DNA of 61,380 nt from Bacteroidota bacterium. Lineage in GTDB: Bacteria; Bacteroidota; Bacteroidia; AKYH767-A; 2013-40CM-41-45. This document shows positions 5,014 through 41,796 of this stretch, one piece after another (the first letter of the stretch is position 1; each line of letters opens with the position of its first letter). The translations under genes and the position numbers were made by a program. Below the pieces are notes generated by a model. The model was given only the letters and a program-made list of their open reading frames with translations, ran no database searches and was not told the DNA's origin. The stretch covers positions 1 through 61,380 of the forward strand of contig PLYJ01000033.1 in assembly GCA_003151745.1 (NCBI GenBank). Reading direction: 5' to 3'.

Positions 5014-5505
5014 GTTCAAAGTTCAAAGTTATTCAGTTCAATGTTTAGTTATGGCTGGCTGTGATGTAATCAGGTGCATCCTCTTTAAATTTACTTCCCT
5101 TCATTTCTGAGTTTTGTAAATAACTCATCAGACCGCCAATTAATTTTGATGTTTCCGTTACGAGATGGAATATAGTATCAAATTGACTTTTGTCAATATA
5201 ATTTAAGTCTAAAGCAACATACAATTGCGCTCTTACTTCAGCCGATGATGCTTTTGCAATAGAAAGAAACTGAAGAAATTCCTTGTTACCATTTCTTTCA
5301 AAACCTTCAGCAATATTGGATAGTATTGAAATGCTTGCTCTTCTTATCTGATCCCTCAATCCGAAGTCTCTTACAAAGTTTCCGCTATTAGACACTTTAT
5401 ATATTTCAATGTTAAGCACTCTCGCCTTTTGCCAACAAACCAATTCTTCAAAACTTTTAATCGTACTCATAACATTGAACTTTGAACTGAGTAACCTTGA
5501 ACTAA
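5014..5505. mobile_element. Heptamer-repeat hairpin arms enclosing the four-helix-bundle gene
   Basis: (GTTCAAA)n arm at 5014-5045 and (TTGAACT)n arm at 5471-5505 abut the stop and start codons. Confidence 0.7.
5045..5470 (-). CDS. Four helix bundle protein (23S rRNA IVP family) inserted between sufB and sufC
   Basis: FEEL.CWQKA, LRDQIRRASISILSNIAEGFER and IAKASSAEVRAQL signature. Confidence 0.92.
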   Translation of the reverse strand: MSTIKSFEELVCWQKARVLNIEIYKVSNSGNFVRDFGLRDQIRRASISILSNIAEGFERNGNKEFLQFLSIAKASSAEVRAQLYVALDLNYIDKSQFDTIFHLVTETSKLIGGLMSYLQNSEMKGSKFKEDAPDYITASHN

Positions 5506-7715: not shown

Positions 7716-8030
7716 TACAAGGTGAGTCGCCCATGTTACATGGTGATGCGACAATTTCATAAAGCGACATCATCATGTATTAGGGCGATATGACGATGTT
7801 AGATGGTGATTTCTCCATGATTTATGGCGACATGACCATTTTTTAAGGCTATATGCCCATGATTTGAGGTGATGCCGCCATTTTTCATAGTCATTCCTCC
7901 TTGTTTCATGGTTATTCCGCCTTACAACATGGCGATACCGCCTTATTTCATGGTCATATACCCTCTTCACATGGTTATGCTGGCATGTTTCATGGTTATA
8001 TTACTTGGTATTATGGTTATAGCCGAATTT
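7716..8030. repeat. Degenerate tandem array, 15 x 21 bp
   Basis: Units such as ttcatggttattccgccttac and ttcatggtcatataccctctt stay in phase without indels. Confidence 0.88.
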
Positions 8031-8218: not shown

Positions 8219-10032
8219 ATGAGAAAAAATATTCTACACGTTTTCGCATTGGTAGTTTTGTTAATCTGCACACTATCAACAAATGCTCAATGGGTGCAGA
8301 CGAACGGGCCTTATGGCGGCGGGGTTAACTGCTTTGCCGTCAGCGGAAGTAACATTTTTGCAGGTACTGATATAGGCGCGTATATATACAATAACAATAG
8401 CAGCAAATGGACGGAAGTATATAACGGTTTGCCATTTAATACTCCTGTCAGTTCATCTGCAATCAGCGGGAGCAACATTTTTGCAGGTACTCAAAAAGGC
8501 GTGTTCTTATCCATCGATAGCGGCAATAGTTGGACGGCTGTGAATAATGGCTTGACTAATCTTTTAGTCAATTCTTTATCTGTCAGCGGAAGCAAAATTT
8601 TTGCAGGAACTGCAGGGGGTGGAGTGTTTGTGTCATACGATAGCGGTTCCAGTTGGTGGACTCTGAATAACGGTTTGACAAATGCTTATGTTGGGCCATT
8701 TGCCTTCAGCGGAAATAATATTTTTGCAGGAACTGACGGTGGTGGCGTGTTTTTATCTACGAACAATGGCAGCAGTTGGGCGGCAGTAAATAACGGCTTG
8801 CAATCAGATACTATTGTTAATTCATTAGCCATAATTGGGAGCAACATTTTTGCAGCAACTTTTAGCGGCGTGTATTCATCCACCAACAACGGCAGTAGCT
8901 GGACAGCAGTTAATATAGGTTTGACAAGTAATGCTGCCTTATCATTAGCCTTTAGCGGGAGCAACATCCTTGCAGGAACTATTCGCAGTGGAGTGTTTTT
9001 TCCACCGACAGCGGCAGCAGTTGGACGAGAGTGAATAACGGCTTGACATATTATACGTGGGTCAATTCATTAATCACCAGCGGTGCCAACATCTTTGCAG
9101 GAATGCGTGGCGGCGGCGTGTTTTTATCTACCGACAGCGGTAGCAGTTGGACGGCAGTGAATAATGGATTAACAGGTACTATTGTATTTTCATTAGCCAT
9201 TAGCGGAAGCAACATCTTTGCAGGAACTGAAGAAGGTGTCTTTTTATCCAATAACAATGGCAGCAGTTGGACGCCAGTGAACAACGGATTGACAAATGCT
9301 ATTGTCTTTTCATTAGCCATTAACGGGAACAGCATTTTTGTAGGAACTGACGGAGGCGGTGTGTTTTTATCCACTAATAACGGCAGCAGTTGAACGGCAG
9401 TAAATAACGGCTTGACAGATACCATTGTCACTTCATTTGCCTTCAGCGGAAGTAACATCTTTGCAGGAACTTATTATGGTCATAGTGGTGTATTTTTATC
9501 CACCAACAATGGCAGCAGTTGGACGGCTGTGAATAATGGCTTAACATTTACTTCTGTTTCGTCATTAGCCATCAGCGGGAGCAATATTTTTGCCGGTGGT
9601 GCCGGTGTGTTTTTATCAACCGACAATGGTAGTAGTTGGACGGCCGTGAATAATGGATTAATAAATCATGATGTCAAATCATTAGCCATTAGTGGAAGCA
9701 ACATTTTTGCAGGAATCTGGGCTGGCGGCGTTTGGAAACGTTCCTTATCAGATATTTTAGCAGTAGAAAACATCACTGCTAATGATAATGACTTTAGTAT
9801 ATATCCCAACCCCGCCACCGACCAACTCACCATTTATACTTCATCTTTTCACAACGAAGTGGTAACGGTTTCGGTGATGAATGTGCTTGGGCAGGAGGCC
9901 TCACCCCCGGCCCCTCTCCTAAGGAGAGGGGAGGATGCGGTGCTTGATGTCAGCAAGCTTGCGTCAGGTATGTATTTTCTTCAATTGAAATCGGAGAGTG
10001 AAAGTGTGGTAAAGAAGTTTGAGAAAGAGTGA
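8219..10032 (+). pseudogene. BNR/Asp-box repeat T9SS cargo protein, disrupted
   Basis: STNNGSSW repeats and a CTD (YPNP...GMYFL). A 1-bp loss near 9000 (GTGTTTTTTCC versus the usual GTGTTTTTATCC) and TGA at 9391-9393 in place of the repeat Trp. Confidence 0.85.
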
Positions 10033-18336: not shown

Positions 18337-18356
18337 AAAATTTAGCTACACATAAC

Positions 18357-18548
18357 TCATTTATTTTCTTTGCTATCCTTCCTTAGTTTCATTTTCACTT
18401 CTTCCCACGTATAATTCTTTCCTTTGCCCTGTTTATATTCTTCAAGTCTCCTGTCAAGTTCGGCTTTTTGCTCATTACTAAGCAACGACTGGCTTTCAAA
18501 CTTGTGAATAAACCGCTGAAGATTTTTGCTTAGTCGGGTGCTTGTCAT
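18357..18548 (-). CDS. Putative addiction-module antitoxin, orphan
   Basis: LSNEQKAELDRRLEEY...YTWEEVK. ATG 18548 lies just downstream of TATCTTTG at 18553-18560. Confidence 0.72.
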   Translation of the reverse strand: MTSTRLSKNLQRFIHKFESQSLLSNEQKAELDRRLEEYKQGKGKNYTWEEVKMKLRKDSKENK

Positions 18549-18694
18549 AGAGCAAAGATAATTGATTGTTTGCAGTTTTTCTAATTGTGATGAGTAAATA
18601 CATCCAACAGATGCTGCGTGACTGGTGGGTCGCACACAGTCTTAAATAATAAAGCGCGCGGGATTGACAATCAAAGTAAGTGAGCAAGCAGAAA

Positions 18695-19300
18695 ACCATG
18701 CATATCCTCATTAAATCCATGCCTAACCTTTTTGAAGCTATGCATGATCTTTTCAGTGTTTGAGCAACCTTATCAGTTTCATGTGTAATCTTATTAATTT
18801 CATGTGTAACTTTTCAAATTCTTCACGCATCTCAATTAATTCATGCATAACCTCATCAATTTCATGCGTAATCTTTGAAGTTTCATACATAACTTTTTAA
18901 ATTCTTCGCATGAAATTGATGTGGTTAGTGCAAACCCGTTAATTTCATGTGCAACCTTAAAAATTCTTCACATGAACACGACAAGCATTCGTATAACCTT
19001 AGAAAGCCCATCAATAATCTTGATAAAGCTTCACATGAATGCAACAAAGTCATGCATGACTTCATCAGTGTTATGCATGCTTTCAATAGAGTCATGCATG
19101 GAATCGTTAAAGTTATGCATGAATTCAACAGTGTCATGCATGAAATTGGTAAGATCATGCATGGATTCAATAGAGTCATGCATGCTTTTGATAGAGTCAT
19201 GCATGGAATCGTGAATGTCATACATGAAATCAATAGAGTGATGCATGGTATTATTAAAGTCATGTATGAAATTAATAAAGTCATGCATGGATTTTGCCTG
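18695..19300. repeat. Degenerate ~21-bp tandem array with CATGCATG core
   Basis: 12 cores exactly 21 bp apart from 19051 to 19282. More degenerate units with small slips extend back to about 18695. Confidence 0.9.
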
Positions 19301-19534
19301 AATAGTACGTTTTTTATGAAAATTTGAGAGGTTTTTGAAAAATGTGATAGAAATTTAGTTATGGAGGAATGTATACGATACACCCCTAAAGGATTATTTT
19401 TATCTCTTAAGAGTTTGGGGTTCAAAAACATTCCTACTTTTGACAATGCTTTGAATACTATTCGAGCTAAGCACAATAAATTATTCTTCTGCATTTCTTT
19501 ATTTGTAATCTTAGTGAACAAGAATATGAAATAA

Positions 19535-21043
19535 ATGGATCACCAATCTTTTAGATATTTAATTCCCGGAATAATCTTCATGGTGCCAATTTACTTTGTA
19601 ATATGTTGGATTACCATTTATCATTACGATGATAAAAGTTTACGAGAGTTTGTTTTAATTGGAGGGATTACCACGCTGCCTGCAATAGCTTTGCCTGCTG
19701 GATGGTGGATTTATAATTCGTACAGAACTATTTGGATAGGATTAGAAAAGGGATATGAAAAGAAGGATTTTATTAAACTTGTAAACAGGGATTTAAAGCC
19801 TTTCTTCTCTCCGTTAATAAACGCCGTGTTAATTGACTTTTCTCAAATTAAAGGAATTGGCAGTTGGATTAAAATTGATATTGATATTTTTTTAAAAACA
19901 TTTTATCCATTTACCAGCAAACAAAGGTCTTTATCAGAAATAGAGCAGTTGGGTATTCATCCTGAATTTACAGAACATGTTTCTGACTCCATTCTATTTA
20001 AAGATAGCAGCTATGATTATGCAAGAAGTATTTCTTCTGTCAGATATGGAATTGAAAGCAGCATTTATGCAGCTTTACTAAGCCTTCCTTATGCTTTTGG
20101 GTTAAAAGCTATCTGGCTTTTTGGTTTACATGTCAGAGATAACGAAGTTGTATTATGGACATGGATTTTAGTCCTTATAGTGCTTACTTCATATATTATG
20201 ATGACTATTTACTTGCGGCGTAAATATGCTAACATGGAATATGATGCACGATTAAACCTGACAACATTAACTTCTGCCCGTTCAAATTATTTTGACACTA
20301 AATTTTTCGAGACAAAAATATCTCAAGAAATTATTAATCAAATTAATTTAATCCCCAATCTAAATTCTTCTTATGCTGCGTTTGATTTAGACAATACATT
20401 GTTAATTGACGATATTGGAGAAGCGGTATTTGCTTCTTTAATAAAAGGAGGATTAGTTAAGGATTTTGGATGGAATGATTATTTGAATCTTCTAAAAGAA
20501 AATCGGGAAGCTGCTTATAAAAGGGTAATTAGTGTAATGGATGGTCTTGAACTAAGCAAACTCAAGCAAATTACGCACGAAATTATAGACAGCAATGAAT
20601 TATATATAGAGATTGGAGAAAATAGAATTGCTATACCAAAACCAAATCCTATTATGCAATCAATGATTTCACTGCTAAAAACAAAGCATGTGGACGTTTA
20701 TGTTGTTACTGCAAGTAACAAAATTTCGGCTGAAATTGTTTGCTGGAAATACTTCGGCACACCTTCGTCGAATGTCTTTGGCATAGACGTTAAAAGTGAT
20801 AGTAGCGGAAGAATTTGTTATCAATCACCTGAAATCCCATTTGGCGAAGGAAAAGTTAACGCACTTAAAAAGACATTAAAAAGCAGACCAATTGTAACAG
20901 GTGGGGATGGCGTTTGGGATAGGTTTTTACTTGATTACACAACTTCTGATGGAATTAGATTATGGTTAGGACACGACAAAAACGAATATCAAAAACTTAA
21001 ACAAGAGTTTTACAAAGACTTAAACTTTTTCCATATACTCTGA
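19535..21043 (+). CDS. Membrane protein fused to a HAD-family phosphatase domain
   Basis: About four hydrophobic segments, then FDLDNTL, VVTAS, GEGK and GDGVWD (HAD motifs I-IV). Confidence 0.8.
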   Translation: MDHQSFRYLIPGIIFMVPIYFVICWITIYHYDDKSLREFVLIGGITTLPAIALPAGWWIYNSYRTIWIGLEKGYEKKDFIKLVNRDLKPFFSPLINAVLIDFSQIKGIGSWIKIDIDIFLKTFYPFTSKQRSLSEIEQLGIHPEFTEHVSDSILFKDSSYDYARSISSVRYGIESSIYAALLSLPYAFGLKAIWLFGLHVRDNEVVLWTWILVLIVLTSYIMMTIYLRRKYANMEYDARLNLTTLTSARSNYFDTKFFETKISQEIINQINLIPNLNSSYAAFDLDNTLLIDDIGEAVFASLIKGGLVKDFGWNDYLNLLKENREAAYKRVISVMDGLELSKLKQITHEIIDSNELYIEIGENRIAIPKPNPIMQSMISLLKTKHVDVYVVTASNKISAEIVCWKYFGTPSSNVFGIDVKSDSSGRICYQSPEIPFGEGKVNALKKTLKSRPIVTGGDGVWDRFLLDYTTSDGIRLWLGHDKNEYQKLKQEFYKDLNFFHIL

Positions 21044-21079: not shown

Positions 21080-24000
21080 ATGCACAACAAATTATTCTAT
21101 TCCATTTCCCTGTTTCTTTTTTTGGCAATTAATCCCACGATTAGCCATGCACAATGGCAGCAAACCAACGGTCCTTATGGAGGTACTATTGTTTGCATGG
21201 CTGTCAGCGGAACAAATATTCTTGCAGGAACTCACAGCGGTATATTTTTATCCACGAATAACGGTGGAAACTGGACTGCAGTTAATAACGGTTTGCCATT
21301 CGATACTATTGTTTCAGAATATGCCACTATTAATTCATTTGCTGTCAGCGGAACAAACATTTTTGCAGCAACTGGCGGCCGTGGCATGTTTTTATCTATC
21401 AACAATGGCAGCAGTTGGACAGCAGTGGATAACGGCTTGACTAATTTTTATGTTAATGCAATAACCATCAGCGGAACAAACATTTTTGCAGCAACTGAAG
21501 GCGGCGGAGTGTTTTTATCCACGAACAACGGCAGCAGTTGGATACCAGTTAATAGTGGCTTGACAAATCTTGAAGTCTATTCATTAGTTGCGTCGGGAAC
21601 AAAGATTTTTGCCGGGACTTATGGTGGTGTTTTTTTATCCACCAACAATGGCAGCAGTTGGACAGCAGTGAATAACGGCTTGACAAATACTTTTATCTAT
21701 TCATTAGCCATCAGCGGAACAAATATTTTTGCGGCAACTGATGGTGGCGGCGTGTTTTTATCCACTAACAATGGCAGCAATTGGACGGCAGTCAATAGTG
21801 GCTTGACAAGTGGTATTGTTTGGTCATTGGCTATCAGCGGGACAAACATTTTTGCTGGGACTGACGATGGAGGCGTGTGCTTATCCAGCAACAATGGCAG
21901 CAGTTGGACGGCGATGAATAGCGGCTTGACAAATACTACTGTCTTATCATTAGTCACCAGTGGGACAAACATTTTTGCTGGAACCAATGGTGGTGGCGTG
22001 TGTTTATCCATCAACAATGGCAGTAGTTGGACAGCGATGAATAGCGGCTTGACAAATACTTCTGTCTTATCATTAGCTGCCAGTGGGACAAACATTTTTG
22101 CGGGAACTGATGGCGGTGATGCGTTTTTATCCAGCAACAATGGTAGCAGTTGGACGGCGATGAATAGCGGACTGACAAATACTTATGTCTATTCATTAGC
22201 CATCAGCGGGGCAAATATTTTTGCCGGGACTCTTAACGGTGTGTTTCTATCCGCCAACAATGGTGACAGTTGGACGGCAGTGAATAGTGGCTTGCCACAA
22301 TATACTTTTGTTTTTTCAATAGCCATCAATGGGACAAACATTTTTGCGGGAACTGAAGTCAGCGGCGTGTTTTTATCCACCAACAATGGCGCAAACTGGA
22401 CAGCGGTTAATACCGGTTTGACAAATACTCAAGTTAATTCACTGGCTGTAAGTGGAAGCAATATATTTGCCGGAACTTATGGTGGCGGCGTGTTTTTATC
22501 AACAAATAATGGCAACAGTTGGACGGCTATCAATACTGGCTTGACTCATACTTATGTTTGGTCATTAGCCATCATAGGGACAAACATTTTTGCCGGGACT
22601 GATGGTGGCGTATTCTTATCCACTAATAACGGTAGCACTTGGACAGCAGCCAATAATGGAATGGTCGGTGTAAGTGTAAGTGCGTTGGCCATCACAGGGA
22701 CAAACATTTTTGCGGGAACTAATGCTGGCGTGTTTTTATCCACCAATAATGGTGCAAACTGGACAGCGGTTAATGACAGTTTGATAAGTGCTCAAGTTAA
22801 TTCATTAGCTTTAAGCGGAACAAATATTTTTGCAGGAACTGTTGGTGGTGGAGTGTGGGAACGTCCTTTATCTGATTTTGTAGTTTATCCGCCGCAGCTT
22901 GATCATATCGGCCCTACACAAGGAGGAAATACAGGTGACGTGACTATTACATTTTTCGGCAGAGCGTTTGGTGATAGCACACAAGTTAAGCTGACAAGGA
23001 GCGGGTATGCTGATATTGTTGCGCCCGATTCATTGACAACACTTACCGCAGATGGAAACGAGGTAGTAGCTACATTTAACCTAAGAGGTCAGCAAGTGGG
23101 TTTATGGAATGCGGTAATGACTATACCGAATGATACGGAAATGACACTTACTAATGCGTTTAATATAATACAAGGCAGCCCTGCACAGGTTTGGTGTAAC
23201 ATTTTAGGTCCGTCACAAATAAGAGTAAATCAATTTGGCAATTTTTCACTAAACTTTGGCAACACAGGCATTGTGGATGCTACGGCTGTTCCATTATGGC
23301 TTGCCATACCCGACAGCATGGTTTCTGATTTCAGCTTTCAAATAACTAATCCGCAGGATACTTTATTCGATTATGATACTATACCTAATTTCGCCCATGC
23401 AGATACCGTATTAGGAGAAAGTTTTAGTGGAAACGTATATCAGTTTTTAGTAAGAAGAATTCCGCCAGGGCAAACTGCTTCACTCAACTTTCGCTTAAAG
23501 ATGCCCTTTTCAGGTAGCAAAAAATTGATGGCTGGTATTCGGCCGCCTCTATATGCTTCTCCTTTAAATCCACAATTGGAAGAGTGCTATACGGCAGTTT
23601 TTAAAGAAATAGATGATAAATTAGGTGATTTACTTGGCCTGCCTGTTGTAGATTGCTTTAACGATTCATGGGATAACGTATATAAGATATGGAAAGATTC
23701 TCCTTGGTTTGATAACAATCCAGATTATGGAACTCTTCCTTACATACTCGACTATTCAAAAAGTCTTTTTTCAATGGTAGCGGATTGTGTTATTGATGTT
23801 TCAGGCACAAGATTATCTGCGATTGAAAATATGGCAAAGGTTGCGTATGAGTTTAGCGGGTATGTTCATCTTGCTTCTTCATGTATTCCATATATATTCA
23901 CTACTGTTCATGGAGATAAAAACTTTAGTACGGTTATTTCCGTTGATCCGAATGAAAAATACGGACCAACAGGTTTGGATTCTTTAAATACAATTAATGC

Positions 24001-41544: not shown

Positions 41545-41796
41545 GTGATTACCGATAACTAAATCACGATTACCGGTAACCATAGTTTAGGTATCTTTCC
41601 CTATTTGGTGGCTACAGGTAATCACCATTTAGGTACCTTTCCCTATTACGCGATTACTAACCATCACGCAAAAAGTACCGGTAACCACAGTTTAGGTACC
41701 TTTCCCTATTTGGAGATTACGGGTAATCATCATGTGATTGCCGGTAATCACACATTAGGTACCGCTCCCTATTAGGTGGTTGCTAATCATCTTTGG
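41545..41796. repeat. Tandem array, 12 x 21 bp, with two unit types
   Basis: P units of consensus GTGATTACCGGTAATCAC and Q units TTAGGTACCTTTCCCTATT, all in phase. Confidence 0.92.

Follow-up and report, generated by a model that had tools for sequence, protein, structure and literature searches.

A hairpin-prone array of 21-bp units between divergent genes of a Bacteroidota bacterium, probably non-coding and belonging to a dispersed family

An array of 21-bp repeats in the DNA of a Bacteroidota bacterium, lying within an analyzed stretch of 61,380 bases (the window), is open to translation in three of its six frames, which raises the question of whether it acts as DNA or encodes a peptide. 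The sequence-only reading had offered both answers, a DNA-level array or a His/Met-rich heptad peptide, and had placed the array between an antitoxin gene and a gene for a membrane HAD protein. Family matches of the two adjacent ORFs agree with this placement:

18357-18635, minus strand: antitoxin-family ORF (PF09720, E 1.6e-8)
19535-21043, plus strand: membrane HAD-family ORF (PF12710 HAD, E 4.2e-9)

The element sits between these divergently oriented genes, and no rep, par or regulator gene was found among the two adjacent ORFs scanned, which matched PF09720 and PF12710 only. The genes that flank the element are unique to its locus and are not repeated at its sister copies. The HAD neighbour protein was found in 0 of 40 relatives, and a DNA search of 40 relatives returned a single match, to the antitoxin part only, in one genome.

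The periodicity of the array was analyzed with TRF. Between 19034 and 19293 it found 12.4 copies of a period-21 unit, at 67% matches, and it also gave 42 and 63 as higher-order periods. In a 21-bp register laid from 19051 the core is present in 12/12 units, as exact CATGCATG in seven of the twelve and as exact ATGCAT in ten, the other two carrying one mismatch. Seven of the eight CATGCATG occurrences in the 61,380-base window fall inside the array. The spaced pair ATGCAT-N15-ATGCAT gave 7 matches against a mean of 0.03 in 100 shuffles, and TCATGCATGA with at most one mismatch gave 15 matches, 11 of them inside the array, against 3.9 expected. TRF, the phased core count and the shuffles therefore agree with the earlier description of about 600 bp of 21-mers with a palindromic core, and with its claim of 12 exactly phased cores, all of which are in register at 19051-19302; the 600-base array is confirmed, and chance is far from accounting for it. 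The core is a conserved 10-12-bp perfect palindrome, TCATGCATGA in the module and TTCATGCRTAA in the older units, and the linkers are variable, so that each 21-nt period is split into a conserved part of 8-12 nt and a variable part of 9-13 nt. The units were also said to be quasi-self-complementary, and so they are: 25 inverted unit pairs are 71-87% complementary, although one unit taken alone lacks a stem-loop.

Positions 18340-19560 were used as a BLAST query against the organism's own 4.6-Mb, 279-contig genome, and the copies recovered were aligned. The following anatomy was obtained:

18689-19353, no strand assigned: whole element (own-genome BLAST and 14-copy alignment; homology with copy C224 to about 19353)
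18689-18703, plus strand: left terminal inverted repeat, degenerate with respect to the family consensus CAGGCAAAAAYCATG (left boundary from the 14-copy alignment)
18689-18945, no strand assigned: left arm, made of some 12 decayed 21-bp units, most of them in the orientation opposite to that of the right arm
18848-18927, no strand assigned: strongest local hairpin, with 32-nt arms that are 81% complementary and 16 nt apart, present in the minimum-free-energy fold
18944-18968, plus strand: centre motif, with 2 mismatches here to the family consensus TTCATGCGTAAYCTTAAAAATTCTT; 10 centre copies in the genome
18969-19050, plus strand: four decayed right-arm units, 21-bp register kept
19051-19302, plus strand: twelve 21-bp units in exact phase, with TCATGCATGA as their palindromic core
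19286-19300, minus strand: right terminal inverted repeat, CAGGCAAAATCCATG, with 1 mismatch to the left-end consensus (motif scan)
19303-19353, plus strand: right terminal module with T-runs, common to copy C224 and partly to C70

The terminal inverted repeats are about 15 nt long and match at 14 of 15 positions, and further inverted arms at 18696-18751 and 19151-19206 are 73% complementary. The left arm is the best-conserved part among copies (70-81% identity), and its longest ORF has 46 aa. The right arm starts past the centre motif, and its phased units show higher-order structure at shifts of 63, 84, 105 and 147 bp (74-80% identity). The earlier description of a decayed left part was right as to the decay, but missed that these units are mostly inverted with respect to the right part and that they include two 41-bp steps, which break every frame; its end point of 19300 falls short, as homology with the sister copies continues to about 19353. 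Folded as a single strand, the whole element reaches -98.8 kcal/mol against -68.4 kcal/mol in shuffles (z -7.3, 20 shuffles). No Rfam family was matched, the best hits being sub-threshold plant microRNA hairpin models (E 0.058), and the locus scan returned 0 terminator-like sites. Promoter-like sites numbered 5, with 6.2 in shuffles, in a scan for the sigma-70 type, which leaves Bacteroidota promoters out.

The BLAST search located further family members at 18 places spread over 16 contigs (E<=1e-3); at E<=1e-16 there were still 12. The left arms of the sister copies are 70-81% identical to that of the window copy, and the 14 aligned copies start at one sharp left boundary and are spaced alike, down to the two frame-breaking 41-bp steps. 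The only indels in the aligned left stretch are two 21-nt deletions, in copies C277a and C64. Right arms diverge far more between copies than left arms do: the window right arm is 74-80% identical to itself at shifts of 63-147 bp and 65-70% identical to any sister, from which we read an amplification in place, by whole-unit steps. As a counter-point, a gene family would have this same layout if its upstream region and N-terminus were conserved and its repeat body variable.

The distribution of the family was then followed beyond the source genome. A double-unit pattern (at most one mismatch) had 14 matches in the own genome and none in 145 other genomes of the order, and a reversed-pattern control had 0 matches. 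The exact IUPAC form of the family pattern was found in 0 metagenome contigs and 0 viral contigs, in a search from which own or near-own records were possibly left out, and BLAST of the whole element against 72,556 plasmid and 50,697 phage records returned no similarity. The idea that the variable segments are phage-derived spacers received no backing, since they had no match in phages, plasmids or viral contigs. Contigs of four metagenome DNA runs contained short pieces identical to the window and pieces of sister copies, showed no strain variation, and none of them bridges the array. Among the genomes searched, the family is found in the source genome alone.

The open frames could reflect a gene, and their presence on both strands had been correctly reported. 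They cross the array as follows:

18947-19327, plus strand: open frame of 126 aa with VMHxFxx heptads, judged incidental
19031-19288, minus strand: open frame of 85 aa with MHDxxxx heptads, judged incidental (pN/pS 1.34)
18925-19521, minus strand: open frame of 198 aa with CMTLxxx heptads, judged incidental (codon log-odds -0.146)

Among 11 units, pN/pS was 0.47 for the plus VMHxFxx frame, 0.47 for the minus CMTLxxx frame, 0.94 for a plus SCMxxxx frame and 1.34 for the minus MHDxxxx frame, so that the two lowest values belong to opposite-strand frames that have third positions in common. In the sister array C41a, pN/pS ranged from 0.5 to 1.1 over all frames, with 0.58 and 0.50 for the frames that share codon boundaries. 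A column-permutation test found no 3-periodicity in the variable columns of the window array (p=0.63). Applied to 122 arrays of the genome, the same test gave p<=0.05 in 3 against 6.1 expected, and the sole array at p<0.01 was a true secreted-protein gene with HDSGHTW repeats, a positive control which indicates that the test is able to detect coding. The lag-3 signal of real genes, whose autocorrelation is 0.286, 0.275, 0.270 and 0.277 at lags 3, 6, 9 and 12 and 0.247-0.264 at the remaining lags between 2 and 11, was not found in the arrays either. A clear codon-position bias in one frame, proposed at the outset as a test, is thus absent.

Codon log-odds trained on 1109 long ORFs placed the plus VMH frame at the 1st percentile of real gene windows (0.035) and gave the minus MHD frame a typical gene value (0.155); codon usage favours this frame and the substitution pattern favours others, so the two tests point to different frames. 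Stops were counted in fixed 336-nt (112-codon) right arms measured from the centre motif in 7 copies, and compared with a 21-column base-frequency model. The putative coding frame had 7 stops against 6.0 expected, and 3 of the 7 arms were stop-free, with a predicted P of 0.42 per arm. Four other frames gave 20 stops against 20.1 expected, 166 against 165.2, 28 against 30.4 and 115 against 106.5, and the opposite-strand frame with common codon boundaries lay above expectation (18 against 10.9). The base-frequency model could itself reflect past coding selection. With stops occurring at the rate predicted from composition, the ORFs on both strands follow from repeat composition alone, and we judge them incidental, by-products of a repeat unit that lacks stop triplets in those phases.

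Searches for homologues were in line with this judgement. Pfam gave nothing above cut-off for the three ORFs (e.g. the coiled-coil-type DASH_Dad1, 26.2 bits against a cut-off of 31), and in 5.8 billion protein clusters none of 63 word-sharing candidates reached E<=0.01. An exhaustive HMMER search returned 100 matches at E<=1e-3, of which the eight inspected (ranks 1-6, 10 and 11) are unrelated 7-residue tandem repeats, e.g. VMYGYVR, MHGSTNT and SHDITNT. The failure of an exact protein look-up to find eight array ORFs is uninformative, as the control HAD protein was absent too. Among the 10 centre copies, an ORF of at least 106 codons starts at the same ATG in five; of the other five, two are stopped early, one is frameshifted and two are truncated. 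Of the two answers offered by the sequence-only reading, the DNA-level array is supported, and the His/Met heptad peptide is not favoured by any test.

A whole-genome TRF analysis placed the window array in a wider context. Among 1363 tandem-repeat clusters, periods 7, 14, 21 and 42 were represented by 344, 121, 181 and 72 clusters, periods 20 and 22 by 17 and 15, period 35 by 1 and period 28 by none. Merging the arrays of period 21 or its multiples yielded about 176 loci that cover 36,196 bp and fall into 91 sequence families, the largest with 16, 10, 8, 8 and 5 members. Period 21 is sharply preferred to its neighbours 20 and 22, and it equals both two helical turns and seven codons. The possibility that the 21-mers are three diverged heptamers was ruled out by autocorrelation, which has its peaks at 21 and 42 alone: the 21-bp arrays have a lag-7 match of 0.254 on a background of about 0.26 and no 14-nt signal either; the values for the window array are 0.20 at lag 7 and 0.19 at lag 14. 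Open frames are absent in 30 of 141 arrays, and in only 11 of the 141 does an enclosing ORF run on for more than 300 nt past the array. The mean number of open frames per array is 1.72 against 1.07 in column-permuted controls, an imperfect control because column permutation destroys dinucleotide content and dyad symmetry.

With respect to the surrounding genes, 52 of 157 array clusters touch contig ends, and the remaining ones occupy 31 divergent, 30 tandem and 14 convergent intergenic regions, with 30 inside a crude gene call. The baseline was 412 divergent, 2088 tandem and 417 convergent regions. Divergent regions are thus over-represented: they hold 31 of the 75 classified arrays but make up 412 of all 2917 regions and 25% of the intergenic length. 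Of 148 arrays, 73 showed dyad symmetry, defined in a gapless test as at least 65% over 63 nt, whereas 4 of an equal number of column-permuted controls did; the window right arm scores 0.68. An outward-facing TTTTTG was present at 94 of 321 array ends, against 7% facing inward and 9% in random intergenic DNA. Its rate is equal at ends facing gene starts (38/130) and ends facing gene ends (24/89), which rules out a role as the neighbour's promoter and assigns the T-run to the arrays themselves. In small samples of two relatives of the same family, no period-21/42 arrays were found among 46 clusters (200 kb of genome G007) or 15 clusters (100 kb of G013), against 8 of 46 clusters in a 200-kb sample of the source genome; period-7 arrays numbered 20 and 4 in the two relatives, respectively.

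Arrays with the same core occur in other bacteria. Four ATGCAT at 21-bp spacing were found in at least 120 stretches of species-representative genomes and, among the matches listed, many are from Nostocales and some from Bacteroidota, Chloroflexota and others; recurrence of the core is partly by construction, as the search pattern required ATGCAT. Linkers in these arrays are unrelated to those of the window array, so there is no evidence of common descent among them. In an unrelated GC-rich metagenome contig, an array that follows a transporter gene on its downstream side comprises 26.7 copies of a TCATGCATGA-core unit, at a period of 22/43/65 and a mixed 21/22-bp spacing. No ORF of at least 70 aa was found over this array, which, because of its mixed spacing, cannot encode heptads and fits helical phasing.

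Taken together, these data lead us to read the array as a non-coding, hairpin-prone, dyad-symmetric mosaic repeat of REP/BIME- or MITE-like type, amplified locally in 21-bp units, and we give this reading a probability of about 0.65. The family is built on a 21-bp module with the palindromic core TCATGCATGA, its arms set mostly in opposite orientations around the centre motif. The BLAST hits and the alignment show that it has spread to at least 12-18 places and that its copies differ by indels of whole 21-bp units. The right arm may have grown where it lies, by whole units at a time, through unequal exchange or slippage during replication, and the element may persist as a selfish or near-neutral intergenic repeat. 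Strict spacing of the palindromic cores by two helical turns suggests that they all face the same side of the DNA; there they could form cruciforms or hairpins, or be bound by a dimeric protein.

This last possibility can be taken further: the cores would be the targets of a dimeric DNA-binding protein, and one DNA face would be coated by it, either in the manner of plasmid iterons and centromeres or as a nucleoid or operator array between divergent promoters. Conservation of the perfect palindrome beside variable linkers, the exact phase over 12 units, the recurrence of the core at 21-22-bp spacing in an unrelated contig, and the position of the element between divergent genes, where such arrays are enriched, all point in this direction. 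Yet 91 unit families would demand many binding proteins or a sequence-independent reader, the two neighbours scanned encode a PF09720 protein and a HAD hydrolase and no rep, par or regulator, and a family of at least 12-18 chromosomal copies without plasmid or phage match fits poorly, so that we regard both variants as unlikely. We hold it to be distinctly unlikely that the plus-strand frame at 18947-19327 and its sisters constitute a fast-evolving, His/Met-rich coiled-coil family of micro-proteins, possibly metal-binding, for which the conserved left arm would be the upstream region. Hydrophobic residues (V, F/I) do occupy a/d-like positions of the heptad and a polar or basic residue the last one, 5 of 10 variable columns fall on third codon positions when judged by eye, half of the centre copies keep the long ORF, and pN/pS is low. 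Nevertheless, the opposite-strand frame gives an identical pN/pS, variable columns lack significant 3-periodicity, stops are as frequent as composition predicts, codon usage is at the bottom of the range of real genes, half of the centre copies are interrupted early (3/10) or truncated (2/10), and the ORFs have repeat-driven homologues only and no Pfam match above cut-off.

Alternatively, the array might work as RNA: transcribed with a neighbour, its long imperfect hairpins would end or stabilize transcripts, much as REP/BIME elements and bidirectional terminators do. Such a role would account for the strong predicted folding, for the dyad symmetry of about half of the arrays and for the outward TTTTTG, which gives each strand a T-run after the hairpin. 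It is nonetheless very unlikely, given the lack of terminator-like sites at the locus and of Rfam matches, the lack of enrichment between convergent genes (14/75), and a T-run that is as frequent toward gene starts as toward gene ends. A broader reading, doubtful as we find it, takes all the 21- and 42-bp arrays as an undescribed bacterial satellite DNA, with a period set by helical phasing (two turns) and with dyad-symmetric units that a lineage-specific process or protein would create or maintain on one DNA face; sequence would then be irrelevant, as the 91 families might suggest, and phyla that are not related would each have acquired the CATGCATG-core type on their own.

These results have a practical consequence for annotation, since the long both-strand ORFs of such arrays should not be called genes. 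Favoured periods of bacterial tandem repeats have so far been discussed mainly for heptamers. The source genome, recovered from metagenome runs labelled as peat, devotes about 36 kb to about 176 arrays, nearly always of exactly 21 or 42 bp, and offers a sharp, testable case of a period equal to two helical turns. The origin of this strict 21-bp period is the most interesting part of the finding.

The element differs from CRISPR arrays in that its conserved part is too short (8-12 nt versus about 23 nt or more) and its variable parts are mutually similar. The sopC centromere of F consists of 12 x 43 bp with a palindromic core, and R6K has 22-bp iterons. The array resembles such iterons and centromeres in its tandem direct repeats of about two helical turns, its conserved core with variable linkers and its number of copies, around a dozen, but it is chromosomal, is present at no fewer than 12-18 loci and has no rep or par among the two neighbours scanned.

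A full-text search of the literature, main texts as distinct from supplements, found heptamer repeats and REPs and no 21-bp-period intergenic arrays. Passages of PMC4679880 describe TAACTGA heptamer repeats in Beggiatoaceae, Cyanobacteria and five Bacteroidetes, and cite a proposal that the 7-nt length reflects polymerase slippage; heptameric G-rich repeats are described in PMC4692102. The element shares with STRR heptamers, and with the inverted heptamer arms around PF05635 genes, the mirror-image arrangement of its repeat arms and differs from them in that it has no gene between the arms and in that a sub-period of 7 or 14 nt is absent from the 21-bp arrays. Five genes of the PF05635 family (23S rRNA IVS, four-helix bundle) were found in the genome, and at least three (in the window, on C37 and on C75) are flanked by inverted or hairpin-forming heptamer arrays. 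The window example is the following:

5045-5470, minus strand: PF05635 gene, with inverted GTTCAAA-type arms at 5014-5045 and 5469-5503

The gene on C75 has similar flanking arms and that on C37 has heptamer hairpins on each side. These arms account for part of the period-7 class of arrays and not for the 21-bp class.

MITEs are exemplified by Correia/NEMIS and RUP. The element is similar to them in being small (about 0.3-0.7 kb), non-coding, multi-copy, intergenic, confined to one lineage and bounded by terminal inverted repeats, and differs in having as its interior a tandem array of variable length. No target-site duplication was found, the bases outside both ends being different in C50 and C224, in a test that is weak because the right boundary is not sharply defined. 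Likewise, among 53 motif matches (15 in the control) there was no inverted pair 0.7-3 kb apart that would betray an autonomous partner. No empty site was found either, and mobility is inferred from dispersal only. As for the transposases associated with REPs (RAYTs), the genome has 7 matches to the Y1 (HUH) transposase family PF01797, of which 3-4 adjoin 21/42-bp arrays: on C58, C107 and C34 an array lies within about 170 nt upstream of the Y1 gene, and on C154 about 490 nt downstream. The C107 gene is about 360 nt from a copy of the element family, with another array in between. The closeness of Y1 genes and arrays may come from a choice of target or from a mechanistic link. The three closest Y1 paralogues reside in units whose inverted ends measure 25 nt and whose A-rich target is duplicated over 8 bp. 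Cognate RAYT genes are flanked by REPs; the Y1 genes of the source genome are in IS-like units and are not flanked on both sides by the element family.

REP units are short imperfect palindromes of 20-40 nt that are able to fold into a stem-loop. A GTAG or CGTC tag marks one of their ends, according to PMC3733652. Neither GTAG nor CGTC is present in the consensus units of the element on either strand, and the element differs further from REP/BIME sequences in its loop-less palindromic core and in its strict 21-bp period over at least 12 direct copies. On the other hand, it resembles them in being intergenic, non-coding and lineage-specific, in its hairpin potential, in its many dispersed copies, with 18 further intergenic places in one lineage and none in the 145 other genomes of the order, and in the short palindromic modules that it combines in both orientations inside one cluster.

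Across the 4.6-Mb genome to which the window belongs (G000; C plus a number denotes one of its contigs), TRF found about 176 arrays between genes whose period is 21 or 42. They fall into 91 sequence families, and the period distribution peaks sharply, with 181 at period 21 vs 17 at 20 and 15 at 22. The window carries the following further arrays:

7815-7954, a further period-21 array
41563-41772, member of the largest array family, GATTACAGGTAAC type

Three Y1 (IS200-like) transposase genes, 82-97% identical to one another, were found in the genome, two of which directly adjoin 21/42-bp arrays:

C58:10079-10540, Y1 transposase gene (locus L180)
C107:14592-15062, Y1 transposase gene (locus L181)
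C154:19927-20388, Y1 transposase gene (locus L179)

Many contigs of the genome terminate beside an array in either of two common sequences, GTACCTTCCTAAAAAAACCTTA or GTACCGTCCTGAAAAAACTTG... (for example C107:1-60, C140, C159, C169 and C178; C14, C116 and C163). These shared ends suggest that the array borders hold another repeat that is not resolved in the assembly, or else that the assembly is faulty there.

About six copies of the dispersed 21-bp palindrome-core element are bordered immediately beyond their left end by a distinct REP-like hairpin, GCACACGGATGATRCGG ... CCGCATCATCCGTGTGC, the hairpin's sites being C37:4195-4245, C64, C114, C272:20540-20570, C277 and C10:24306-24375; in one case, that of C10, the hairpin stands alone, accompanied by just an end motif.

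Inverted heptamer arms of the GTTCAAA type, 88-95% complementary, enclose a PF05635 gene of the window (23S rRNA IVS / four-helix-bundle), the whole unit spanning 5014-5503:

5014-5045, inverted heptamer arm
5045-5470, minus strand, PF05635 gene
5469-5503, inverted heptamer arm

The genome holds four other PF05635 genes; similar arms flank that of C75, and heptamer hairpins are located at both sides of that of C37.

The window also contains long coding repeats of 123 bp (41 residues, SGTNIFAGT... type):

8336-9715, coding repeats
21333-22856, coding repeats within a 1329-aa ORF

Judged from its sequence, the C-terminal end of this ORF resembles a T9SS sorting signal. Taken with look-alikes in a protein atlas, these features point to an organism of the Bacteroidota.

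In other organisms, an array with the TCATGCATGA core of the window array was found on a metagenome contig from a GC-rich organism (L188:7820-8397; 578 bp, 26.7 units of 21-22 bp), downstream of ORFs that, from reading their sequences, are trigger-factor-like and transporter-like. Among the matches listed, Nostocales genomes (loci L029, L049, L055 and others) harbor many short arrays, in both orientations, of a 21-bp unit starting ATGCATTAACAATG....

The units holding the three Y1 genes possess inverted ends of 25 nt, GGTTCTATCGTTAATCGTGTGAAAA, and an A-rich target duplicated over 8 bp, a combination that is unusual for the IS200-like Y1 family.
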